64,000 nucleotides of DNA from Escherichia phage UGJNEcP3, in the sequence record OV876907, one strand, 5' to 3'. A program made the position numbers and the translations under genes. This document shows positions 36,944 through 62,142 of the stretch, one piece after another (positions within the stretch are counted from its first letter, which is position 1; each line of letters begins with the position of its first letter). Under the pieces are notes generated by a model. That model saw only the letters and a list, made by a program, of their open reading frames with translations, made no database searches and was not told the DNA's origin.

Positions 36944-36973
36944 ATAGTACCACATCCTTGTGGTGTTGTAAAC
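36944..36973 (-). promoter_or_regulatory. early-type promoter GTTTACA-N17-TACTAT
   Basis: Upstream of the 36625-36915 gene; -35 overlaps the Alt-A stop codon. Confidence 0.5.
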
Positions 36974-39096
36974 TACATTTTGAATTTATTTGATAAAGAA
37001 GAGATATCCAAAGACGCGGCAAGGATTTCCATAGCTTCATTGCTTTCAGAAATGGATTCACTAATCAAGAACTGACTGAATCCATCCATCAGGCGAACTT
37101 CGCCAGTTTCCATCAAATGGTCACCATCGTAAACAGATTCGCTGAGCTCTGAAGGAGGTGTTACGGTAGCTTCCATAAGGTATTTGTGAGATACTCTATC
37201 ATTCATGGCAAAAGACGCTACTTTATCAACCTTCAACAATAATCCACGCGGAAGGATAATTTCTGCTTCTTCAGCATATTCTGTAAGGTCGCCAGGAGCG
37301 ATAACTTTAACTGCTTCAGCACCTCGAATAACCATACCAATTTCAGCAATTCTATCCGCAGGGCCTTCAGGTGCAATTGGATTACCAAACTCGTCTTCTT
37401 CCCATTCCACCTCTTCGTCATCGACTTCACCCACATCAGATGAACTACCACTAGCCAATTTAAACAACTCATCGGCTGAGGATAAAGAACCTTCATCACC
37501 AACAAAAACTGCTTGGTTGTCGAGGGCCATATAATTTTTACCAAATTCGCCAAAGATGTTAGGCTTTAATGAGGCCGACACAAAGTTCTTAAAGTAAAAT
37601 GTTTTGTTATCGATATTATGACGCAGAATTTTGTATGGTAAATCCTGACCACGATACAAAATAGTACCCTTAGGAAGTTTAATACCCTTAGTAAATGCTG
37701 AGTCTAAATCCTTAATCAATTTAATAGCCGTTGTATTGTTTTCGGATTCAGGTTTACCTAAAAGGAATAAGTTCATAGGAGCATATTCAGCTGCGCAATA
37801 TTCAATAATAGCATTGCTTTCGTCTTTGGTTAAGTCCTTAGGTTTAATGAGCTCACCTGAATAAGCATATGCATCACTAATAGAATCGTTAATTAGTTTA
37901 TAAACGGCTTCCATAGCGAAAGCAATTCGAGAGGCCTTTTCTGAAGGGGAGCCTTTAAAACGAGCGCTCAAGTTATTAACAATTTTCTTAATAATATCCA
38001 GACTATTGGTGGTATTGATTTGCGAAAGGCCACTTAAAAGTCTATCGACTTCTGTATTAAAAAATGCCATATTATTAGAGTAAATTTCAAACCCTTGTTT
38101 ATCTCTATTAGCATAATTTAGTTTAAATTTACTATCAGTCATTAAAGCGTGTGTGAGAGCAATAGTGTATCTAAAGTTGGCAAGGTCCTCGCTCTTAGAT
38201 TTAAACTGAGAAGCCTGGCGCATTTTGGTAATAGCACCTTTTTTAAAGTTCTGACTAATCTGTTCAATACCTTCATTCTCAGGGCCTTCAGCCGTGTGAA
38301 CCGGTACAGAAGCTTCAAACTCGTTATAAACCTGCAATTCTTTAGGGGACAAAGTTTCAGGCTCAGCAGTAGAATACTGCGCGGCCGCTGCCATACGACG
38401 CGAAATCTTAGTACGAGTAATGACAGCCTTATCAGTACGTTTCTCTTCAACTTGTGCAATAGATGCCGCTACGGCTTCTACTTTACTTACGGCCTGGCCG
38501 GTTTTCTTAGAAACATACACTTCGCCAACTTTAGACTCGACTTTAGTATAAAGATTGGCATCAATTTCAGGCATACCCTTGATATCTTCAATATTAGCAC
38601 CACGACGTACTAAAAGAACGTAGGTATGTTTTCCGCTGAATTGGAACATGTGGTCAACAACTTTAAACTTACCACCGGTACGGGCCATAGCCAAACGAGC
38701 TAATACGCGCTGAACGGTAGGGCCTTTACCTTTCATTTTCTTAGTAGGGAAACGGAATAAAACCGCGTCCATTTTAAGTTTGTTTATTTGTTCATATATG
38801 GTATCGAAAATGGTGTTCAGTGTACCGAGTGGATCGGTACCCAAACCACCCTTGAGTTCTGCCGGAGCGCCTTTAGCAGATAAACTCATTAAGATAACAT
38901 GGACGTACTTATCGCCATTTTTAACCATCTTAATAGCGTCGCCTTCAGACGCATAAGATACCATACGCGCTACTAAATTGTCATTACCAGGAGCATGTAC
39001 CGCAAAAATCTGCGGTACGCCTGAGCCAGGTTTAAGATTTGTTACCGGATAGTTTTTAGCGGAATCGCTATCAAAAACTTCGTTTAAATTTTCCAT
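36973..39096 (-). CDS. alt: Alt-like ADP-ribosyltransferase, paralogue A (third in transcription order)
   Basis: N-terminus MENLNEVFDSD...; ART motifs YRGQ / VSASL / EIILPRG in the C-terminal third; central segment unlike the other two copies. Confidence 0.8.
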   Translation of the reverse strand: MENLNEVFDSDSAKNYPVTNLKPGSGVPQIFAVHAPGNDNLVARMVSYASEGDAIKMVKNGDKYVHVILMSLSAKGAPAELKGGLGTDPLGTLNTIFDTIYEQINKLKMDAVLFRFPTKKMKGKGPTVQRVLARLAMARTGGKFKVVDHMFQFSGKHTYVLLVRRGANIEDIKGMPEIDANLYTKVESKVGEVYVSKKTGQAVSKVEAVAASIAQVEEKRTDKAVITRTKISRRMAAAAQYSTAEPETLSPKELQVYNEFEASVPVHTAEGPENEGIEQISQNFKKGAITKMRQASQFKSKSEDLANFRYTIALTHALMTDSKFKLNYANRDKQGFEIYSNNMAFFNTEVDRLLSGLSQINTTNSLDIIKKIVNNLSARFKGSPSEKASRIAFAMEAVYKLINDSISDAYAYSGELIKPKDLTKDESNAIIEYCAAEYAPMNLFLLGKPESENNTTAIKLIKDLDSAFTKGIKLPKGTILYRGQDLPYKILRHNIDNKTFYFKNFVSASLKPNIFGEFGKNYMALDNQAVFVGDEGSLSSADELFKLASGSSSDVGEVDDEEVEWEEDEFGNPIAPEGPADRIAEIGMVIRGAEAVKVIAPGDLTEYAEEAEIILPRGLLLKVDKVASFAMNDRVSHKYLMEATVTPPSELSESVYDGDHLMETGEVRLMDGFSQFLISESISESNEAMEILAASLDISSLSNKFKM

Positions 39097-39099
39097 TAT

Positions 39100-41148
39100 T
39101 TACCCTTGGGTGAATTTTTCTGGGGTTTCGTCAAAATTAATACATGAAGCTAAAATAGGCATTATATCCACCTTGGTCGATTTGACGAATGAATCAAAAG
39201 ACACACGGTTGTCGGTCTCTGTTTCTACGCCTTGGTAAACAACCAATTCGCCGGTTTCCATCAATGCATCACCATCATAGATAACCGCATTTTCTGCTAG
39301 TTGGTCTGTGGTCTGGATATCAGCTTCCAATAATTTGGTGTTGTAGTTTCCTTTATATGAGGCATCTGTAATTTTAGTAATCTTAACAGTAGTTCCACGT
39401 GGAAGAATAACCTCTTGTTCTGTTGGAGAACCTGACAATTCACCGGGCACAATTACGTTAATAGAGTCTGCACCGGAAATTTTCCAACCGATGTTCATCA
39501 TTGTATTTTCGGAACTCGTCAGCATACTTGGAAGAACAATTTCATTATTGCCTTGGAAAGATGTCCCAGCGCGATAGTCCTGATGAACTGCGGCCATTGC
39601 GACGTTTGATACCCAGCCGCCAAAGATAATCGGCTTAAGGGACGTTGATACATAGTTCCTGAAATAAAACAATTTTGAGTGTTTGATTTTATCAAAAGTG
39701 TTAACATTTAAATATTGACCACGCCAAAGTGTAATATCAGGTGGCAATTTATGGCCAATTTCAAATGCCGCATCCATATCATTAATTACTTCAATTACAC
39801 GATAACTATCAATAAATTCTGCATCCTCTTCATAATAATTACCCAACAAATAATTATTAACATCGGTATAATATTGGCCACAATAAGAAGAAATAGCCTC
39901 ACGCTGCCCATACTCAAATCGATTATCGCTATAACTGGCTGTAAAATGCATAACACTTTCTGACGCTTCATTAGCAAAGTCGGTAACAGCAGCACTTATA
40001 CGTTGAGCATACTCTTGTTCCCAAAGCTCTGCTGCATATTCTGCCGCATCCATATTAGGAGGAGCCTCATTCATTTTTCTTTCGATAAATGCAGCTTTGC
40101 GAAGGTTAAGAACCTCTGCACATGATTCGGCAAAAATCTGCATCTGCTTCATACTGCCGACAGGAGCACGTTTAAGTTCACGATGCATACGGTTAAAAAT
40201 TGGGTCAGAGTCTTCGACTCGAATTTCTTCTTTCCAAACACCGTTTGCTCGCATAGCCATATCTGCCGCGCGCATACGCTCCATAGTATTCGTTTCAGAA
40301 GGCTGAATAAAAATTTCCAGTTCTTCATAATCATCGATAAGTTCTGCTGTTGCTGGGGCACTAAATTTTGATGCCTCTGCATCAATCTCATTCCAACCTT
40401 CCGGAACTTCATCTCGAGGAGAATACTGGGCTGCGGCTACAGCACGCCTAGAAATCTTGGTAGTAGTAATAACGGCCTTATCCGTACGTTTTTCTTCGAC
40501 TGCCGCTATACTAGCAGATAGTGCTTCTATTTTGGTTACCGATTGGCCTGTTTTCTTGGATACATAAACCTCACCAACTTTAGACTCAACCTTAGTGTAA
40601 AGGTCTGCATCAATTTCAGGCATACCTTTTATGTCCTCAATATTAGCTTGTTTACGGACCAGTAAAACGTATGTATGTTTGCCTGTAAATTGATACATAT
40701 CATCGACAACTTTAAACTTGCCGCCAGTACGAGCCATCGCCAAACGTGCCAATACACGTTGAACAGTAGGACCCTTACCTTTCATTTTCTTGGTAGGGAA
40801 CCGGAAAAGAACTGCATCCATTTTAAGTTTGTTTACTTGTTCGTATACAGTATCAAAAATGGTATTCAGCGTACCAAGTGGGTCAGAACCTAACCCACCT
40901 TTCAACTCGGCTGGGCTACCCTTAGCAGACAAACTCATCAAAATAACATGAACATATTTGTCACCCGGCTTAACCATTTTAATAGCGTCTCCTTGAGACG
41001 CATAAGATACCATACGAGCAACCAGATTATCATTACCTGGTGCTTGGATAGAGAAAATCTGTGGAATACCGGGACCCGGTTTAAGATTTGTTACTGGATA
41101 GTTTTTAGCGGAATCACTATCAAAAACCTCATTTAAATTTTCCATCAT
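39100..41148 (-). CDS. alt: Alt-like ADP-ribosyltransferase, paralogue B
   Basis: N-terminal about 230 aa near-identical to paralogue A; motifs WRGQ / VSTSL / EVILPRG; start may be the second ATG (41145). Confidence 0.8.
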   Translation of the reverse strand: MMENLNEVFDSDSAKNYPVTNLKPGPGIPQIFSIQAPGNDNLVARMVSYASQGDAIKMVKPGDKYVHVILMSLSAKGSPAELKGGLGSDPLGTLNTIFDTVYEQVNKLKMDAVLFRFPTKKMKGKGPTVQRVLARLAMARTGGKFKVVDDMYQFTGKHTYVLLVRKQANIEDIKGMPEIDADLYTKVESKVGEVYVSKKTGQSVTKIEALSASIAAVEEKRTDKAVITTTKISRRAVAAAQYSPRDEVPEGWNEIDAEASKFSAPATAELIDDYEELEIFIQPSETNTMERMRAADMAMRANGVWKEEIRVEDSDPIFNRMHRELKRAPVGSMKQMQIFAESCAEVLNLRKAAFIERKMNEAPPNMDAAEYAAELWEQEYAQRISAAVTDFANEASESVMHFTASYSDNRFEYGQREAISSYCGQYYTDVNNYLLGNYYEEDAEFIDSYRVIEVINDMDAAFEIGHKLPPDITLWRGQYLNVNTFDKIKHSKLFYFRNYVSTSLKPIIFGGWVSNVAMAAVHQDYRAGTSFQGNNEIVLPSMLTSSENTMMNIGWKISGADSINVIVPGELSGSPTEQEVILPRGTTVKITKITDASYKGNYNTKLLEADIQTTDQLAENAVIYDGDALMETGELVVYQGVETETDNRVSFDSFVKSTKVDIMPILASCINFDETPEKFTQG

Positions 41149-43236
41149 TTACCCTTGGATGAATTTTTCTGGGATGCCATAGAGGTCTATGCATGAAGCC
41201 AAAAGAGACAGTACATCAACCCGTGTAGATTTAACAAATGAATCAAAAGATACAGGGCTTTCGGAAGTATCGAAATCATCTTGATATACGACCAACTCAC
41301 CGGTTTCCATTAGTACGTCACCATCATATACCACAGATTCTTGAAGCTCATCTGATGTCATAACTTCAGCTTGAATAAATTTATTGTTAGACACCGTCCC
41401 GGAACCAGTATTGGCTGATGCATCCACGATTTTATCTATTTTTACAAGTAGCCCGCGTGGTAAAATTATTTCCTTTTCGTTGGCATGCATGCTTAATTGG
41501 CCAGGATAAATCACGTTAACCTTATGAGCGCCACTAATAGCCCAGCCAACATCAACACGGATTTGATCCGGCGCATACATATGTGTACGCACTTGACTAT
41601 CAGAGATGGTAACGCCTTCGTCATTATTATCAATGTTTAATTCTTTTCGAACATCATCGGAAGCAAGACCAATAGCCGCATTCTCTTTAAAGCCACCAAA
41701 AATGATTGGAGCTAATGAGGTTGAAACATAGTTTCTAAAATAGAATACCTTATTTTTAACTAATGCTTCGTAGATAGGCGCGCGCAAAGATTGTGCTCTA
41801 TAAACCATTATTCCTTCAGGTAAACGGTCTCCATTTTTAAAGGCAGAATCCATTCCATCAATAGCACGTTTAACTTCGCTTTCGTCCAAAACTTCATAAA
41901 AGCCTGGTTTATAACGACCAAGAAGGACATTGTTAATATCAATATAAGCTGAAGAGGCGTATTCTCTGATAGCTCGTTTTTCTGCAAGTGTATATTGTTT
42001 AGGGTCTCGAGATGTTGTTATATTAAGAATTTCTCTAGTTGATTCTATAGCGTATGTATACATTATCTTAGACAAGAATGAAGACTTACGTTGTTTCCAT
42101 ACTATTTCACTGTTTTCATTCAATATCTCTTTTTCCAAATGGAAATTGTCTTTTCTATAATCTTCAAACCAATCACTTTTAATAGATTCTGCGATTTCAT
42201 TAGCAACTTCAACAAAGGCAGCTAAAGCTTTAACTGACGTGGTTTTTTCATTTTTAATTTTTTTGACAAATGTTTCTAAAGAAGAGTTAATTTTATCACC
42301 GTAAGAAACTTCATCCGCAAATTTAAATGAATCATCCATAGTATTATAAATTTTAAAATCAATAGCCGTAGCCAACTTATCCTTAGCTGTTTCAGATGAT
42401 AACGATAGTTCAACTTCGGCCGCTTGTGGAATTAATTCTGCCGTAGCAGGCGCACTGAACTCACTAGCAGTTTGCTCGTATTTCTGAAACAATTCACCTT
42501 CATTACGATCTGATTCTAATGACTGGCTTGCTGCAATAGCACGTCGCGAAATCTTAGTCTTGGTTATAACCATTTTATCGGTGCGACGTTCTTCAACCTT
42601 AGCAATACTGCCGGCAATAGCAGTTTCTTTAGTAACCTGCAGGCCTTCTTTTTTAGAAATATAAACTTCACCAACATCAGAATCTACCTTAGTGTATAAT
42701 TCGGAATTAATTCCTGGCATACCCTTAATATCTTCAATGTTAGCTTGTTTACGAACTACTAGGATGTAAGTATGTTTACCGGTAAATTGGTACATAGCCG
42801 GAACTACTTTAAAACGTCCACCTGTTTTCTGTGCTACCAAACGTTGGATAATCCGTTGAACAATAGGCCCTTGACCTTTCATTTTCTTAGTAGGGAAACG
42901 GAACATCACTGCATCCATACGAAGCTTTTTAACTTGGTCATAAACCACATCAAAAATAGTATTAATCGCATCTACGGGAGTAGGGCCAAGGCCACCCTTA
43001 AGTTCGGCTGGAGTACCTTTAGCTGAAAGGCTCATAAGGATAACGTGGGCATATTTATCGCCTAATTTAACTTGTTTAATAGCATCACCTTCAGAAGCGT
43101 AGGATACCATACGCGCTACTAATTGGGATTCTGCATCGCCAATCTTCCAAATCTGAGGTACTTTAAGTTTTGGGTTCAAGTTTACTGTAGGCAGAGTGCC
43201 TTCGGACTCAAACACTTCATTTAATTGTTCGGTCAT
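41149..43236 (-). CDS. alt: Alt-like ADP-ribosyltransferase, paralogue C (first in transcription order)
   Basis: N-terminus MTEQLNEVFESE...; motifs YRAQ / VSTSL / EIILPRG; C-terminal tail shared with paralogue B; AAGAGGAA RBS. Confidence 0.8.
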   Translation of the reverse strand: MTEQLNEVFESEGTLPTVNLNPKLKVPQIWKIGDAESQLVARMVSYASEGDAIKQVKLGDKYAHVILMSLSAKGTPAELKGGLGPTPVDAINTIFDVVYDQVKKLRMDAVMFRFPTKKMKGQGPIVQRIIQRLVAQKTGGRFKVVPAMYQFTGKHTYILVVRKQANIEDIKGMPGINSELYTKVDSDVGEVYISKKEGLQVTKETAIAGSIAKVEERRTDKMVITKTKISRRAIAASQSLESDRNEGELFQKYEQTASEFSAPATAELIPQAAEVELSLSSETAKDKLATAIDFKIYNTMDDSFKFADEVSYGDKINSSLETFVKKIKNEKTTSVKALAAFVEVANEIAESIKSDWFEDYRKDNFHLEKEILNENSEIVWKQRKSSFLSKIMYTYAIESTREILNITTSRDPKQYTLAEKRAIREYASSAYIDINNVLLGRYKPGFYEVLDESEVKRAIDGMDSAFKNGDRLPEGIMVYRAQSLRAPIYEALVKNKVFYFRNYVSTSLAPIIFGGFKENAAIGLASDDVRKELNIDNNDEGVTISDSQVRTHMYAPDQIRVDVGWAISGAHKVNVIYPGQLSMHANEKEIILPRGLLVKIDKIVDASANTGSGTVSNNKFIQAEVMTSDELQESVVYDGDVLMETGELVVYQDDFDTSESPVSFDSFVKSTRVDVLSLLASCIDLYGIPEKFIQG

Positions 43237-43474: not shown

Positions 43475-44995
43475 TTATAACCCAGTTTGAGACCAATCAC
43501 CGAATACATCTTCAAATGTATCAGCTTCTGTTTTATCGAAACGCCAACCTTTAATGATAAGTAAGAAAACACCTACAGTATCGGTACGCCCTTTAGAATG
43601 AACCCAACCATTACATTCACAATCAGCGATACGTCCAATCAATTTACCTTCACGTGCTTCCTTCATCAGTCGTTCACGGTCCATATCAGGACGGTCTTCT
43701 AAAGGAATCAATATTTTCTTTTTAGTCTTAAAGTCTTTAGTGTGAGTTGTGTCTTTAAAGCCTGAACCACAGTCACTTGTAATTCGACGACACCGCGATA
43801 CTAACTCAACACCACCAATCTTGTTAGGGTCTTTAGAGTGTTCATAATAACCTACTACTTCTAAAGCGATATCGATTACTTCTTTGAACTTGATAAGATT
43901 CTTAGAACGGCGGTTTTCCCAATAGGAGTCCATGTTCTTAAGGATAATGCCTTCCAGACCTTGGTCGACATATTTCTTATAAACTTCACGAGCTTCTTTA
44001 AGATTATAGACCCATTGGTTTTCAATTGCTTCAACACGAGTTTTACCATGCAATACGACATTATGCCCTACCATATGTTCTAAGGCGGCAAAACGTACGT
44101 CGTATTTCTCGCCTTTAATTTTACCTTCAGAGTACACCACTTCAAGAGGAACATAGTCCCATGCCTGAAGAACCATACCAGCGGCTTCAGTAGCTGAAAT
44201 AGTACCATTCAGGGATTTGTTAGCTAATCCGTTTGAAGTGCTACGGTCTACAGCGAATTCTTTAGCCTTGCTTAGTTCAGGCATGTCTTCTTCAAACATA
44301 CTAAACAAGTCATTAGCTTCAGGTTGCTTAACCACCGGTTCATGGTAAACTAATTCACCATCAATTAATACGCCACCGGGATGTTTCTGACGTGCATCTT
44401 CAGTCATAACCATGAGCTCTTCAGCCAATAGATTAAGCCCTTGATATTCGTTACCGCCACGTGTAAGGAATGTTACGCCGTCGTTACGAACTTCAGCAAA
44501 ACATCGAGCCCCATCAGCTTTTAATTGAGCGAACGCTGGCCATTTAATATTTTTCTTAATCAGAGCTTCGTCATAAGAACTAGCCAACATTTGAGGTTGT
44601 TCAGGGATTAAACCTTTCCAAACCTTGTTAGCAATAGAAATTGATGCGCCACATTCAAGGTCACGCATCATTACGCGACGTAATACCTCAGCGTCCGGAC
44701 CTTTAGCATCAGCAATGATTTGGGCTAGTTCTTCAATAGCCGCATTACCTGTAATCTTACGGGTGGCTAGTGTGAACTCAGCGAAATCAAGAAGGTCTTC
44801 AAGTGTAATCATACCAAAGGATTGAGACGTAAATCCAGGTTCTGGCCACTTTTTAATGCCGTAATTCAGACGACGGGTATAGGCCATACGATAAACACGT
44901 TTCAGAAGCTCATTGTCCTTTTCACGAGCAATAATAGCTTCTTTAGCTTTAGTAGAATCAATAGCAGCAATTTCGTTTAAAATATCTAAAATCAT
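43475..44995 (-). CDS. 30: ATP-dependent DNA ligase gp30
   Basis: ORF track; MILDILNEIA N-terminus and adenylation motif KADGARC collinear with T4 DNA ligase. Confidence 0.93.
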   Translation of the reverse strand: MILDILNEIAAIDSTKAKEAIIAREKDNELLKRVYRMAYTRRLNYGIKKWPEPGFTSQSFGMITLEDLLDFAEFTLATRKITGNAAIEELAQIIADAKGPDAEVLRRVMMRDLECGASISIANKVWKGLIPEQPQMLASSYDEALIKKNIKWPAFAQLKADGARCFAEVRNDGVTFLTRGGNEYQGLNLLAEELMVMTEDARQKHPGGVLIDGELVYHEPVVKQPEANDLFSMFEEDMPELSKAKEFAVDRSTSNGLANKSLNGTISATEAAGMVLQAWDYVPLEVVYSEGKIKGEKYDVRFAALEHMVGHNVVLHGKTRVEAIENQWVYNLKEAREVYKKYVDQGLEGIILKNMDSYWENRRSKNLIKFKEVIDIALEVVGYYEHSKDPNKIGGVELVSRCRRITSDCGSGFKDTTHTKDFKTKKKILIPLEDRPDMDRERLMKEAREGKLIGRIADCECNGWVHSKGRTDTVGVFLLIIKGWRFDKTEADTFEDVFGDWSQTGL

Positions 44996-47038: not shown

Positions 47039-47079
47039 AATATTTTCCTCAATGGAGGCCGAAGCCTCCATTTTTAAGA

Positions 47080-47445
47080 TTAGATATCAAATTCGTTAAG
47101 AACTACATCAAAGATTGCTTCCAGGTGTTCAGGTTTAGCACGGTTGCTCAGGATGTGACGAATCCAAGTTTTAACCAGAAGCTTACGATTATCGCCGTTC
47201 CAGCAAGGATGGGTACCTAAATCACGTTGACGGAAATCGTCATCTAAAGCGATTTTAAAAGTAGAACCTTCCATAGTGATTGAAACCGTAATACCATTTT
47301 CAAAGCGCATGTAAACGTAGTTAGGAGTCATGCACTGTTCGATTTCACACACTGTACCGTTTTCGTGTTTCCACAGGCAAATAACTTCGGAAGAACCAGC
47401 GATACCGTTAGAAACATATTTACGTTCGAAGTTGATGTAGTTCAT
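47080..47445 (-). CDS. hypothetical protein with duplicated promoter-leader (copy 1)
   Basis: ORF track; GGAGAA RBS; leader about 45 nt near-identical to that of the 47519-47851 gene. Confidence 0.6.
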   Translation of the reverse strand: MNYINFERKYVSNGIAGSSEVICLWKHENGTVCEIEQCMTPNYVYMRFENGITVSITMEGSTFKIALDDDFRQRDLGTHPCWNGDNRKLLVKTWIRHILSNRAKPEHLEAIFDVVLNEFDI

Positions 47446-47485
47446 TTTATTCTCCAGTTTGTTTTCGTATTATTTGGTACAGGTC

Positions 47486-47514
47486 TATAATAACACAACC
47501 TGTACCAAAGTAAA
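47486..47514 (-). promoter_or_regulatory. early-type promoter TTTACT-N17-TATTAT within duplicated leader (copy 1)
   Basis: Upstream of 47080-47445; 10-bp inverted repeat TTGGTACAGG / CCTGTACCAA flanks the -10. Confidence 0.45.
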
Positions 47515-47518
47515 ACAT

Positions 47519-47851
47519 TTATTTCACAACATTCCAATTTTTCATATCAAGTTTACCAACTTTTTTCATCTGAGCAATCAGACGTTCAGCACGTTTGCGG
47601 GCATTAACATAATAGAATTCACCAATTTCGTTTTCTTCAATACGGCCGGTAATTACAGTTTTCAGTTCATAAATCCAACCTGTAAAGAAGTTATGAAGCT
47701 CGATGGTAAAGGTGAAATCGGTACCCATACCTTCTGTTGTTTCAACTTCGATGATATCACCTTCAACTGCAGTCAGGACCCACATGGTTTCTTGATATTC
47801 ACCGTTGAAACATTTAGCTTTAACAGATGCATTCAGGTTTACAGTTTTCAT
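47519..47851 (-). CDS. hypothetical protein with duplicated promoter-leader (copy 2)
   Basis: ORF track; GGAGAA RBS; TGTACA-N16-TACTATAG promoter; shares an EG..T.F..I.L motif region with the neighbouring gene. Confidence 0.6.
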   Translation of the reverse strand: MKTVNLNASVKAKCFNGEYQETMWVLTAVEGDIIEVETTEGMGTDFTFTIELHNFFTGWIYELKTVITGRIEENEIGEFYYVNARKRAERLIAQMKKVGKLDMKNWNVVK

Positions 47852-47892
47852 TTTATTCTCCGGTTTGTTTTCGTATTATTTGGTACATGTCT

Positions 47893-47920
47893 ATAGTATC
47901 ATGCCTACCGGAGATGTACA
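47893..47920 (-). promoter_or_regulatory. early-type promoter TGTACA-N16-TACTATAG within duplicated leader (copy 2)
   Basis: Upstream of 47519-47851; downstream 45 nt near-identical to copy 1. Confidence 0.45.
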
Positions 47921-47949
47921 CCCTTTTTTTAAGATTTAGAAACAAAAAT

Positions 47950-47967
47950 GGGACTCCGAAGAGTCCC
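47950..47967 (-). terminator. intrinsic terminator after the small basic ORF (UUCG tetraloop)
   Basis: Minus strand GGGACTC-TTCG-GAGTCCC then ATTTTTGTT. Confidence 0.6.
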
Positions 47968-47972
47968 ATAAC

Positions 47973-48134
47973 TTATACAATCACTTTACCGAAGCAAGCA
48001 GCATCTGCACGCAATACTGCACGAGCACGAGCTTGAAGCTTATCAACTACCTGATTGATACGCTTGTTAGACGCACGCTTGTAACCAGCGCGTTTAGAGG
48101 TACCGTCAACTACTTTAACTTCTTTCTTAGCCAT
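47973..48134 (-). CDS. small basic protein (about 53 aa), hypothetical
   Basis: Below track cutoff; hand translation MAKKEVKVVDGTSKRAGYKRASNKRINQVVDKLQARARAVLRADAACFGKVIV; highly-expressed-style codons; UUCG terminator follows; coordinates approximate. Confidence 0.4.
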   Translation of the reverse strand: MAKKEVKVVDGTSKRAGYKRASNKRINQVVDKLQARARAVLRADAACFGKVIV

Positions 48135-48392
48135 TTTTAAATCTCTTAAATTAGGATGCAGGACTTATTGGCGTTGCCTGCGCAAGCCCTCAAGGGAACA
48201 TAGGTTTTGGATATTTAACGACAGGATAACCATAAACCTCGTCATCATACCAACCACGACTTAGACAGATAACCTTTTTCTGACGCGTGATAGTACAAAA
48301 TACATTCAAGAGGTACACCGTAAAACTGCCGGGGTCTTAAAACTATAATGATTCGCAAATCATTAATCAGACAGTTCGACGGCTCCTCGATT

Positions 48393-48641
48393 TTACTTCA
48401 GGGTAATAATAAAATGACGTACTGCTTTACGAGCTGCTGAAGCCAAAGGCTTAGCATATTTCAGTTCATCTTTTGCTTCCAGTTCAGCCGCCAGTGTGGC
48501 CTGTGCTGGGTTCAGATGTTTGAAATAACGCAGGATTTCCAGTGCTTCGGCTTCAACATCAATAGATGCGCCGTAGTTTTCATGACCGTTGTTCCAAGCG
48601 TTGCGTTGCAGTTCAAGAGCGTGATTCAGTTGTTTGTTCAT
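48393..48641 (-). CDS. rIII: lysis inhibition accessory protein RIII
   Basis: ORF track; 82 aa, matching T4 rIII in size and position between 31 and the 30.x cluster. Confidence 0.7.
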   Translation of the reverse strand: MNKQLNHALELQRNAWNNGHENYGASIDVEAEALEILRYFKHLNPAQATLAAELEAKDELKYAKPLASAARKAVRHFIITLK

Positions 48642-54300: not shown

Positions 54301-54788
54301 TTGGTAATAATCTCGATGATATCATCACGTGACAGGGAATTAATAAGAACCGTTTTAGGGTTTTCACACTGAATTTTATACGTTTCAAACATAAAACATA
54401 ATTCTTCAGCGGTATGGTAAGGACTTGAAATGCCGAGGCGATTAAACTTGTCGCTTAATGGGTCGCAAATCAAATAGAAAGTGATTCCTGAGATTTTAAC
54501 ATTAGGCTGACTGATATTAATGAACACCTCGGCATCATACTTAGAAAGGTTGTTTTGGAGAAACTCTACCATAGAGTTAACAGCTTCAGGCATGGCTTCA
54601 CGCTTTTCTTCTGCATAACGGGTAGAGTATTCTTTTTGCTTGATTTTCTTTTTAGCATTTTTAGCTAAAGTAACACGAAGATCGGTCAGGTAACCTACTG
54701 CACGGGAACCTTTAAAAACTTGGATACCGTCAGTAGAATCACCAAAAGCTTTAACAACCATTTCGTTAGTAATCATTTGCATATTCAT
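54288..54788 (-). CDS. alc: Alc-like protein (host transcription shutoff on cytosine DNA)
   Basis: ORF track; call rests on size and conserved position between pseT.3 and rnlA. Confidence 0.6.
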   Translation of the reverse strand: MNMQMITNEMVVKAFGDSTDGIQVFKGSRAVGYLTDLRVTLAKNAKKKIKQKEYSTRYAEEKREAMPEAVNSMVEFLQNNLSKYDAEVFINISQPNVKISGITFYLICDPLSDKFNRLGISSPYHTAEELCFMFETYKIQCENPKTVLINSLSRDDIIEIITKCLN

Positions 54789-54817
54789 TTTGTTTTCTCC
54801 TCATTAGTTGGTAGGTC

Positions 54818-54847
54818 TATACTAACACATCATGAGGAGATGTAAAC
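54818..54847 (-). promoter_or_regulatory. early-type promoter GTTTACA with weaker -10 (upstream of alc)
   Basis: GTTTACA with AGTATA or TAGTAT at the 16-17 nt position. Confidence 0.4.
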
Positions 54848-61847: not shown

Positions 61848-62087
61848 TCACGCTTTCTTAGCGACTTTCCAGTCAGCTTTAAATTGGCCGACATCAGAGT
61901 GGTGAATCCAGAAACCAGATGAGCTACCATCTTCATAAAGAGGACACCCGTCGCACTCATCTTTCCAACCCATTTCACACAAAGCTTGTTCGGCTTTTTC
62001 TAAAGCTTCCGGATTGTTACCCTGGATTGTGAAGTACCATTTGCCTTTAACTTCAGAATCGTTGATTGATTCTCGTTGTAATTTCAT
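61848..62087 (-). CDS. hypothetical protein (frd.x cluster)
   Basis: Start at ATG 62087 (MKLQRESIND) after AAGGAG; GTTTACA-N17-TACTATAG promoter upstream. Confidence 0.55.
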   Translation of the reverse strand: MKLQRESINDSEVKGKWYFTIQGNNPEALEKAEQALCEMGWKDECDGCPLYEDGSSSGFWIHHSDVGQFKADWKVAKKA

Positions 62088-62112
62088 TTTATTCTCCTTA
62101 GTTGGTAAGGCT

Positions 62113-62142
62113 ATAGTATCACTACCATAGCCTGGTGTAAAC
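62113..62142 (-). promoter_or_regulatory. early-type promoter GTTTACA-N17-TACTATAG
   Basis: Upstream of 61848-62087. Confidence 0.5.

Follow-up and report, generated by a model that had tools for sequence, protein, structure and literature searches.

Two adjacent small genes of Escherichia phage UGJNEcP3 (OV876907), 30.8 and 30.7, are preceded by almost the same sequence. The locus raises the question of where this similarity comes from. A preliminary description of the 64,000-nt stretch analysed here (the window) suggests a duplicated, co-regulated gene pair with operator-like sites. The present analysis points to another origin. The two units are probably neighbouring early-promoter cassettes of the promoter-early stem-loop (PeSL) type, and homologous recombination would be the source of their identity and also a process that uses it as substrate.

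The locus and its predicted promoters

The source phage is a T4-like Dhakavirus, and the locus lies in the variable region from rIII to the ligase gene. All features located below are on the minus strand. The upstream neighbour is gene 30.9 (47973-48134; 53 aa). Past it, and ahead of promoter P30.8, terminator scan and folding find an intrinsic-terminator-like hairpin, ATGGGACTCTTCGGAGTCCCAT (47938-47969), followed by a T run. Gene 30.8 (47519-47851) encodes the 110-aa allele of a PF06019 protein and is enclosed by the two cassettes. Gene 30.7 (47080-47445) encodes a 121-aa PF06919 protein. Copy 2 of the repeated sequence lies in the interval from the stop codon of 30.9 to the ATG of 30.8, and copy 1 in that from the stop codon of 30.8 to the ATG of 30.7. 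Full-text literature searches return nothing specific to the 30.7 or 30.8 promoters.

Each small gene has its own set of promoter, leader, and RBS, in agreement with the preliminary description, and from -10 to ATG the two sets hardly differ. The predicted early promoter P30.8 (47893-47938) comprises an A-rich upstream tract (AAAAAAA), the -35 GTGTAC (47921-47916), a 17-nt spacer, and TGn plus the -10 TACTAT (47901-47893), with a predicted start near 47886. The predicted P30.7 (47487-47515) comprises the -35 TTTTAC (47515-47510), a 17-nt spacer, and TGn plus TATTAT (47495-47487), with a predicted start near 47480. The -35 regions differ, as had been described. P30.7 is flagged in the promoter scan, with TG before the -10, and its orthologue in the TuIa record AJ621579 is annotated as a promoter with -35 and -10 signals.

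T4 early promoters are composed of UP, -35, TGn, and -10 elements (Hinton 2010, PMC2988021). The A-rich upstream tract, a GTTTAC-like -35, the 17-nt spacer, TGn, the TAYTAT -10, and further conserved positions downstream of the -10 are common to them and to this locus. The predicted P30.8 differs in that GTGTAC, or GTATAC in some relatives, takes the place of the GTTTAC consensus. Both promoters would be read by the unmodified host sigma-70 RNA polymerase directly after infection. Transcripts from each would start with an A-rich 5' leader of about 35 nt that is predicted to be unstructured (minimum free energies of 0 and -0.7 kcal/mol), and GGAG stands 7 nt ahead of the ATG in both copies. Good translation of these own-promoter transcripts is expected, since the leader is unstructured and GGAG is well placed. 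The minimum free energies of all 11 early leaders in the window range from 0 to -3.6 kcal/mol.

Extent of the direct repeat

The near-identical stretch is confirmed as a 55-nt direct repeat with 51/55 identical positions and a spacing of 406. Copy 2 (47847-47901) covers the extended -10, initial transcribed region, leader, RBS, and ATG of 30.8; copy 1 (47441-47495) covers the extended -10, leader, RBS, and ATG of 30.7. Both copies contain the pattern TATAGAC.TGTACCAAATAATACGAAAACAAAC.GGAGAATAAAATG, and the two mismatches that it indicates are the only ones.

The similarity could consist of generic early promoter and RBS consensus, the sites having no specific relationship. The window's minus strand has 11 early promoter-leaders, with the common consensus GTTTAC-N17-TGnTAYTAT-AGACCTAYCAAC...GAGGAGAAnAAAATG. 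The segments TATAGACCT.TACCAA and GGAGAATAAAATG are generic parts of these leaders, the latter being present also at 62087, and the identity from -10 to ATG in the other 54 pairs of leaders averages 0.67 and does not exceed 0.88. This generic portion makes up about two thirds of what the copies have in common, and only about 17-25 nt, AAATAATACGAAAACAAAC, are private to the pair. In contrast, the 30.8/30.7 pair reaches 0.94, and its -10-to-ATG distance is 41 nt compared with 25-34 nt in other early leaders. The 25-nt core TGTACCAAATAATACGAAAACAAAC has only two matches in the 64 kb at up to three mismatches, namely both copies, against 0.00 expected. An exact-pattern scan of IMG/VR finds the private leader in six contigs, always paired at this locus, 406 or 443 nt apart. 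The relationship of the two sites is pair-specific because they are 94% identical and, within the window, the core is confined to them; a purely generic origin is very unlikely. The preliminary description had considered that the stretch might be just generic consensus, and the proteins similar only by chance. The proteins and about two thirds of the stretch agree with this, whereas the private central segment does not. A dispersed mobile element is also rejected as the identity of the private leader, as the IMG/VR scan returns only the pair at this locus. A 71-nt blastn query finds at most two places per genome.

Absence of relationship between the two proteins

The preliminary description interprets 30.8 and 30.7 as a tandemly duplicated, co-regulated pair, with a shared protein motif and with the palindromes serving as operators for a common DNA-binding regulator. 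The genes are adjacent, of similar size, and near-identical from -10 to ATG, and the inverted repeats overlap both promoters. Both predicted proteins are beta-rich, with a helix beginning near residue 84. However, the shared motif does not withstand comparison. BLASTP of gp30.7 against gp30.8 gives no match at E<=100, and two profile-profile comparisons with hhalign give a probability of 0.1%. The Pfam families differ (PF06919 for gp30.7, PF06019 for gp30.8). BFVD fold searches with the AlphaFold models return non-overlapping match lists, the gp30.8 model having a pLDDT of 94.7 and the gp30.7 model being weak at 66.6. Paralogy is rejected on these four comparisons, with the weakness of the gp30.7 model applying to the last. 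The genes show no sequence, profile, or fold relation, and a duplicated gene pair is not what the locus contains.

Variation among relatives

Close Dhakaviruses have two 30.8 alleles, of 110 aa (as in JS98) and 122 aa (as in IME08), and the locus spans about 975 versus about 1012 nt. The alternative allele is 39% identical and lies between the same two cassettes. In comparison with dhaeg, the flanks are 95-100% identical, and identity falls to about 45% only from about 47846 to about 47510, that is, from the 30.8 ATG to the P30.7 -35. Several Mosigviruses and TuIa are without 30.8; each has a single chimeric cassette, and the crossovers fall in three different shared patches. The crossover lies in GGAGAATAAAATGAA in AV109 and TuIa, in TATAGACTTGTACCA in SQ17, and just 5' of the -10 in the Mosigvirus JM10, in which a Mosigvirus-type spacer is joined to the leader found here. 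In phage C6, an extra ORF separates the terminator from P30.8. Depending on the genus, 0 to 3 genes lie between 30.9 and 30.7.

The duplicated leader is read as both product and substrate of homologous recombination because of the allele swap and the chimeric single cassettes in relatives. The -10-to-ATG identity would have arisen by recombination or gene conversion between cassettes, and not by gene duplication. The generic patches TATAGACYTGTACCA and GGAGAATAAAATGAA, which flank the private segment, would already have been common to both cassettes beforehand. As direct repeats, the two copies would now be linkers for homologous recombination that shuffles the enclosed gene. Evidence for ongoing gene conversion between the copies is thin: copy polymorphisms in relatives are mostly private to one copy, and only IME341 has the copy-1 base in copy 2.

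Among sequenced relatives the locus exists in four states: with the 110-aa allele, with the 122-aa allele, without the gene, and with an additional one. Chimeric cassettes reveal directly where crossovers took place, which makes the locus a convenient site to measure cassette-mediated recombination; assays for the predicted 406-bp circle and for the deletion junctions would be easy. As a natural example of small size, it shows how T4-like phages exchange small accessory genes.

Comparison with PeSL cassettes

PeSLs are promoter-early stem-loop cassettes of T4-type phages (Arbiol et al. 2010, PMC2839356; Comeau et al. 2014, PMC4122927). Both units at this locus have the PeSL order of A-rich tract, GTTTAC-like -35, TGn and -10, stem-loop, GGAG, and ATG. 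Judged by their sequence, TTTTAC-N17-TATTAT (P30.7) and GTGTAC-N17-TACTAT (P30.8) correspond to the T4/PST PeSL promoter consensus TTTACW-N17-TAYWAT (PMC4122927). The stem-loop is represented by an 11-bp repeat around the P30.7 -10, and by a spacer arm and an inner stem at P30.8. A Shine-Dalgarno sequence and a start codon form the 3' end of both copies. The unit recurs in the genome, with 11 related minus-strand promoter-leaders in the 64-kb window, and relatives differ in the flanked ORF by replacement, loss, or an extra ORF, with the junctions in the cassettes.

Published PeSLs (PMC2839356, PMC4122927) and this locus have in common the AT-rich tract, the strong sigma-70-type early promoter, the Shine-Dalgarno sequence, and the start codon. 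In each, a stem-loop overlaps the -10 or lies between it and the -35, and the location is a hyperplastic region ahead of small genes without an assigned function. The flanked ORF is, in either case, replaced, deleted, or inserted in close relatives, and crossovers lie between the -10 and the ATG, where those of PeSL mini-circles have been mapped (PMC2839356).

There are also differences. The two adjacent cassettes are far more alike than PeSLs generally, being homogenised over the whole -10-to-ATG region, including the private leader. The stems are not of the G-run/C-run type of RB49 PeSLs. At P30.8, the 3' arm of the stem is the RBS itself. Mini-circle formation and measured promoter and terminator or attenuator activity belong to the description of PeSLs; here, every functional step of the explanation given is inferred from the sequence. 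As with morons and integron gene cassettes, one small gene moves together with its own expression signals. Morons and integron cassettes differ in that their movement involves a site-specific integrase or illegitimate recombination, while here it would be general homologous recombination between conserved regulatory linkers. The locus is a local, ordinary example of the PeSL cassettes already described, and it leaves what is known of phage gene regulation unchanged.

Predicted RegB/S1 sites and the shared leader

The strong RegB/S1 site consensus is GG*AGRAYARAA (Durand et al., quoted in PMC3014915), and regB is widespread among T4-related phages (review, PMC3014915). The sequence GGAGAATAAAA matches this consensus exactly at 47851-47861, from the RBS to the A of the 30.8 ATG, and again at 47445-47455, ahead of 30.7. 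The window contains 3 matches compared with 0.41 expected. GGA is predicted to be unpaired in both own-promoter leaders (folds at 0 and -0.7 kcal/mol). The matches resemble the RegB/S1 sites of T4 early mRNA (PMC3014915) in being located at the RBS of early genes, in being intergenic, and in being predicted unpaired. The T4 sites differ from them in that those described here are predicted from their match to the consensus. Early RegB/S1 cleavage is expected because GGAGAATAAAA equals the strong consensus; it would fall in the RBS and inactivate the 30.8 and 30.7 transcripts. The two mRNAs are likely to be handled similarly after transcription, since their 5' UTRs are near-identical and both have the exact strong consensus.

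A shared 5' UTR function could itself be under selection. In that case, AAATAATACGAAAACAAAC would serve as a binding site or an enhancer of translation (e.g., for S1, RegA, or a small RNA) giving both genes the same dosage and timing, and recombination would be incidental. The leader exceeds the window's other early leaders in length by 7-16 nt, and is A-rich, predicted unstructured, and equipped with the exact RegB consensus. It is highly conserved in both copies across Dhakaviruses, and is found ahead of 30.7 in the Mosigvirus JM10 too. However, the orthologous leaders of T4, Mosigvirus, Gaprivervirus, and Jiaodavirus diverge freely over this segment although their genes stay conserved, and the ESCO10 leader is a mosaic. 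Furthermore, the leader has no Rfam match and no structure to conserve, and its RBS and RegB part is generic, not private. Selection with incidental recombination is thus considered unlikely, and recombination between PeSL-type cassettes is preferred. As causes of the identity, selection for an identical leader and recombination cannot be separated.

Inverted repeats and possible masking of the RBS

The palindromes reported in the preliminary description are present in both copies. At P30.7, TTTGGTACAGG (47509-47499) and CCTGTACCAAA (47483-47473) form an 11-bp inverted repeat (47473-47509) that encloses the -10. The hairpin has an energy of -20.2 kcal/mol (z -4.3), and 0/200 shuffles are equally stable. 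As RNA it is possible only in read-through transcripts from P30.8. An intrinsic-terminator role is not supported, as the hairpin is without a T run and is uncalled by the terminator scan. Other genera have hairpins at the same position with different arm sequences.

At P30.8, the spacer arm TCTCCGGT (47914-47907) is a long-range complement of ACCGGAGA (47864-47857), together spanning 47857-47914. The RBS GGAG of 30.8 (47861-47858) sits inside the ACCGGAGA arm. The 8-bp helix is paired in both the minimum-energy and centroid folds (z -2.9), and a helix of this length arises in about 0.6% of spacer shuffles. P30.8 also has an inner GCATG/CATGT stem. In the folding of the leaders, which the preliminary description had suggested, leaders started at the own promoters are predicted to be unstructured, and the inverted repeats to pair only in RNA started upstream. 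A known RNA family in leader or hairpin is not indicated, the Rfam search at E<=1 giving only a chance mir-12 match on the hairpin (19.9 bits versus a gathering score of 55).

In 10 Dhakavirus sequences, the TCTCCGGT/ACCGGAGA helix is paired in 100% of cells, with one pair being G-C, G.U, or A-U. Covariation among them does not exceed the shuffle control, with 327/500 shuffles reaching the observed pair count. At P30.8 of Jiaodavirus, Karamvirus, Kanagawavirus, Gelderlandvirus, and Mosigvirus, the proposed masking helix is either weak or missing. Spacer-RBS complements are formed by other sequences at the T4-type P30.8 (TTCCTTTGT/ACAAAGGAG), in the VR26 group (TCCAGTG/CACTGGA), at P30.7 of Karamvirus and Gelderlandvirus (CTCCGTTGTAT/ATACAACGGAG), and at the alc promoter of the window (TCTCCTCAT/ATGAGGAGA). 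Support for masking is taken from these independent lineages with differing arms, and not from the Dhakavirus covariation. TCTCC is present in the spacer of only 2/11 window promoters, and so the complement to GGAGA is not an automatic result of a generic spacer motif.

Every early promoter examined, in the window and in other T4-like genera, has its own inverted repeat in the same place and with a differing sequence. The inverted repeats are read as acting in RNA rather than as a protein-binding DNA site, since their variants in relatives retain Watson-Crick or G.U pairing. This preserved pairing, together with the individual repeat of each promoter and the different arms, positions, and spacings of the two repeats, argues against a shared operator. 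With the proteins also dissimilar, a duplicated pair under a common DNA-binding regulator is extremely unlikely. CTCCGG/CCGGAG is better read, plausibly, as an RNA helix that would mask the 30.8 RBS only in upstream-started transcripts.

Under the preferred reading of PeSL-type cassettes, the inverted repeats would be the stem-loop part, working in RNA read through from upstream. A hairpin of -20 kcal/mol would form at P30.7, on the 3' side of the message of 30.8. Pairing of the P30.8 spacer with the RBS would leave the RBS exposed only in P30.8-started RNA; this is the least certain step. Hairpins that sequester the RBS are found in T4 e, soc, 49, and I-TevI (reviewed in PMC3014915). As in these, pairing of the Shine-Dalgarno sequence is predicted in upstream-started transcripts, and the proximal promoter lies within or after the 5' arm, so that own transcripts are predicted to be open. 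In the T4 cases, the proximal promoter is late, and it is the early or middle RNAs that stay silent (PMC3014915), whereas here the proximal promoter is early. The predicted P30.8 helix also differs from them in having only 8 bp and a loop of about 42 nt.

Spacer-RBS complementarity with unrelated arms is found at 30.8 (Dhakavirus, T4, and Gaprivervirus), 30.7 (Karamvirus and Gelderlandvirus), and alc (window). A tentative and somewhat doubtful extension is that in some T4-like early cassettes the stem-loop is a translational insulator and not a terminator, with upstream RNA being silent and RegB-protected and own-promoter RNA being expressed. If true, the insulator and the upstream terminator would make each gene-plus-cassette unit fully self-contained, which could explain the shuffling of units among genomes without regulatory damage. 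A further hairpin at the locus, without a T run, follows right after the 30.7 stop codon; it has a UUCG loop, ATGGAGGCTTCGGCCTCCAT (47052-47071), and an energy of -16.6 kcal/mol (z -4.0).

Adjacent early cassettes before genes 30.8 and 30.7

The two units are adjacent early promoter-leader cassettes of the PeSL type (the promoter-early stem-loop cassette of T4-type phages), and their 3′ halves are homogenised. The small accessory gene between them, 30.8, appears from sequence comparison to be exchanged, lost or supplemented in relatives by recombination in the cassettes. The repeat noted in the preliminary description is real. Its main interpretation, a duplicated and co-regulated gene pair with operator-like palindromes, does not hold, as the proteins are unrelated and the palindromes are PeSL stem-loops. 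The locus is a new, well-documented example of an already known element type and of modest interest; it is mainly useful as a tidy locus for tests.

Dhakaviruses are T4-like Straboviridae. The 2.2 kb around the repeat pair matches Escherichia phage UGJNEcP4 (OV877765.1) at 100% identity and JS98, IME08, VR5, WG01, and other Dhakaviruses at 93–96%. With names taken from the annotated relative IME08 and from tblastn, the minus strand carries rIII (48393-48641), 30.9 (47973-48134), 30.8 (47519-47851; 110 aa, 79% identity to T4 gp30.8), and 30.7 (47080-47445; 121 aa), followed by genes 30.6 to 30.2 and then the DNA ligase gene 30. The rIII-to-ligase stretch belongs to the variable regions of T4-type genomes. 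Another small, intergenic variable patch lies between rIII and 30.9, where a few dozen bases at window 48252-48300 are inserted, deleted or replaced relative to dhaeg (95–100% identity elsewhere). A UUCG-loop hairpin directly 3′ of the 30.7 stop codon (47052-47071, minus strand; −16.6 kcal/mol, z −4.0, no T run) overlaps the ATG that comes first in the longest ORF called for 30.6, and 30.6 therefore probably begins at the ATG following GAGGAAAATATT instead. The ligase gene (43475-44995) adjoins three tandem ORFs of 707, 682, and 695 aa (36973-43236, minus strand). These look like three Alt-like paralogues, since their DNA repeats with a period of ~2.05–2.1 kb at 66–80% identity and the middle ORF has the ADP-ribosyltransferase domain PF03496.

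Cassette anatomy and extent of the repeat

On the minus strand, an intrinsic-terminator-like hairpin after 30.9 (47969-47948 plus T run) precedes copy 2. Its promoter, P30.8, comprises an A run, the −35 element GTGTAC (47921-47916), a 17-nt spacer, and TGA-TACTAT (47901-47893). With transcription starts predicted from −10 positions, the 35-nt leader begins at ~47886, with GGAG at 47861-47858 and the ATG at 47851. The copy 1 cassette begins right behind the 30.8 stop codon, and P30.7 has TTTTAC (47515-47510), a 17-nt spacer, TGT-TATTAT (47495-47487), a predicted start at ~47480, GGAG at 47455-47452, and the ATG at 47445. The −35 regions thus differ, as originally described. By sequence, both cassettes share the UP/−35/TGn/−10 design of T4 early promoters (PMC2988021), and the TuIa GenBank record annotates the orthologous 30.7 promoter with −35, −10, and stem-loop.

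The repeat finder gives a 55-nt direct repeat (47441-47495 and 47847-47901, minus strand) with 51/55 identical positions and a spacing of 406 nt; the 47-nt string with two mismatches reported initially is exactly this sequence. Within the window, only these two copies of the 25-nt core TGTACCAAATAATACGAAAACAAAC are found at ≤3 mismatches, against an expectation of none. A catalogue requiring a T4-type early promoter, then a ribosome-binding site, then an ORF yields 11 early promoters on the minus strand of the window. Their common pattern is GTTTAC, 17 nt, TGnTAYTAT, AGACCTAYCAAC, and then GAGGAGAAnAAAATG, and hence TATAGACCT.TACCAA and GGAGAATAAAATG of the repeat are the general early-promoter and ribosome-binding consensus of the phage. 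From −10 to ATG, global identity is 0.94 for the 30.7/30.8 pair against a mean of 0.67 and a maximum of 0.88 for the other 54 pairs, and the distance is 41 nt against 25–34 nt in the other early promoters. The private part of the repeat is therefore the central AAATAATACGAAAACAAAC. The alternative of a generic early consensus before proteins alike only by chance is correct for part of the stretch and for the proteins, but not for this centre.

Palindromes, predicted RNA structure and candidate RegB sites

Both palindromes are present as described: TTTGGTACAGG (47509-47499) with CCTGTACCAAA (47483-47473) in copy 1, and TCTCCGGT (47914-47907) with ACCGGAGA (47864-47857) in copy 2. A strong hairpin (−14 to −31 kcal/mol) occurs in every P30.7 examined, with the 5′ arm in the spacer and the 3′ arm behind the −10. 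Arm sequences vary by genus, and one T4-like variant has C to U opposite G. The P30.7 palindrome is the PeSL stem-loop, an element that lies mostly between −35 and −10 or overlaps the −10 (Arbiol et al., PMC2839356). In RNA reading through from 30.8 to 30.7 this hairpin is predicted at −20.2 kcal/mol (z −4.3), and the terminator scan and folding find no T run behind it. For the own-promoter leaders of 30.8 and 30.7 practically no structure is predicted (0 and −0.7 kcal/mol, not more stable than shuffles), and the same holds for all 11 early leaders in the window.

In RNA reading through the 30.9 terminator, UCUCCGGU within the P30.8 spacer is predicted to pair with ACCGGAGA (z −2.9), which covers the ribosome-binding site of 30.8. 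The 8-bp match is reached by ~0.6% of spacer shuffles. All cells of the helix are paired across ten Dhakavirus sequences, one pair occurring as G-C, G.U, and A-U, but the pair count does not exceed the shuffle control (327/500 shuffles reach it). An unrelated 9-bp match (TTCCTTTGT/ACAAAGGAG) occurs at T4-type P30.8, the VR26 group has TCCAGTG/CACTGGA, and P30.7 of Karamvirus and Gelderlandvirus has an 11-bp match; the pairing at P30.8 is absent in several genera. A translational mask is plausible but unproven. Its analogues would be the hairpins of T4 genes e, soc, 49, and I-TevI (PMC3014915), except that the unmasking promoter at P30.8 is an early one. The early promoter (54788-54846, minus strand) before alc (PF17527; 54293-54788, minus strand) shows the same design as at 30.8 in another sequence, its spacer TCTCCTCAT and its ribosome-binding region ATGAGGAGA being perfectly complementary over 9 bp.

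GGAGAATAAAA in both leaders exactly matches the strong RegB/S1 site consensus GG*AGRAYARAA (quoted in PMC3014915). The window has 3 such matches against 0.41 expected, all at starts of small early genes. The third ribosome-binding site with an exact RegB consensus (GGAGAATAAAATG) lies at 62087-62141 (minus strand), behind an early promoter and before a 79-aa ORF. Three early promoters are closely spaced there, at 62141, 62432, and 63143.

Proteins gp30.7 and gp30.8

The two proteins are unrelated, and the motif similarity once proposed is no more than chance. BLASTP gives no match at E≤100, hhalign of profiles from diverse homologues gives a probability of 0.1%, and Pfam places gp30.7 (PF06919) and gp30.8 (PF06019) in separate families. 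AlphaFold models gp30.8 confidently as a beta-rich domain with one helix (pLDDT 94.7) and gp30.7 weakly (pLDDT 66.6). Their Foldseek match lists against BFVD share nothing and contain a named relative for neither. Homologues of gp30.8 (~37–39% identity) also occur in phi92-like Justusliebigvirus phages of a different subfamily, at locus L023 (Escherichia phage PD06, NC_052653.1; 1189-1572) and at two comparison loci, L041 and L042. Their upstream promoters are ordinary TTGACG-N17-TAATAT, pointing to movement of this small gene from one group of phages to another.

Exchange, loss and insertion in relatives

Dhakaviruses dhaeg, IME08, and IME341 have a 122-aa gp30.8 with ~39–41% identity to the 110-aa form, situated between the same two cassettes. 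In a sliding comparison with dhaeg, identity is 95–100% on both sides of 30.8 and falls to ~45% only between its ATG (47851) and the P30.7 −35 (~47510). The locus was surveyed with a synthetic 30.9-cassette-30.7 junction as query. Among the matching records both alleles occur within the clade at 94–97% flank identity, with locus spans of ~975 and ~1012 nt, and allele type does not correspond to flank similarity.

Eight records match the junction in a single piece. The order 30.9, one cassette, 30.7, without 30.8, is found in the Mosigviruses AV109, JM10, and SQ17 and in the older TuIa fragment. Judged against Mosigviruses retaining 30.8 (moskry and metagenomic locus L007), these single cassettes show three kinds of chimerism. 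In AV109 and TuIa the entire P30.8 promoter and 30.8 leader are retained and joined to 30.7 at GGAGAATAAAATGAA; in SQ17 the change from P30.8 sequence to 30.7 leader falls within TATAGACTTGTACCA; and in JM10 the Mosigvirus P30.8 spacer is followed by a −10 and leader that match those of the window exactly. The AV109/TuIa and SQ17 crossovers fall in the two patches common to both cassettes, in agreement with PeSL mini-circle crossovers, which map between −10 and ATG (Arbiol et al., PMC2839356).

Between the 30.9 terminator and P30.8, Dhakavirus C6 (MW679410.1) has an additional, inserted proline-rich ORF of 118 aa that brings its own terminator hairpin (504-860 of locus L030); none of the other Dhakaviruses examined showed it. 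Jiaodavirus, Karamvirus, Kanagawavirus, and Gelderlandvirus have one or two further genes between 30.8 and 30.7.

Origin of the identity

In T4-type phages only GGAGAATAAAATGAA is common to the two cassettes. Those of Mosigvirus and Gaprivervirus share TATAGACYTGTACCA and the ribosome-binding patch and differ in the middle, and in the Dhakavirus group the middle is shared too. The simplest reading of the long identity is that the two cassettes underwent conversion or unequal exchange with each other and that the two generic patches primed it. The Dhakavirus leader also precedes 30.7 in Mosigvirus JM10, which hints at copy 1 as the donor, though the direction is uncertain. In ESCO10, copy 2 is a mosaic (CCAACAAATACGAAAAC), and copy 2 of IME341 has the copy-1 base at the first mismatch; beyond these, there is little sign that conversion is ongoing. 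In other genera the two promoters share lineage-specific stretches from −10 to ~+20, which represent either concerted evolution or a lineage-wide promoter consensus.
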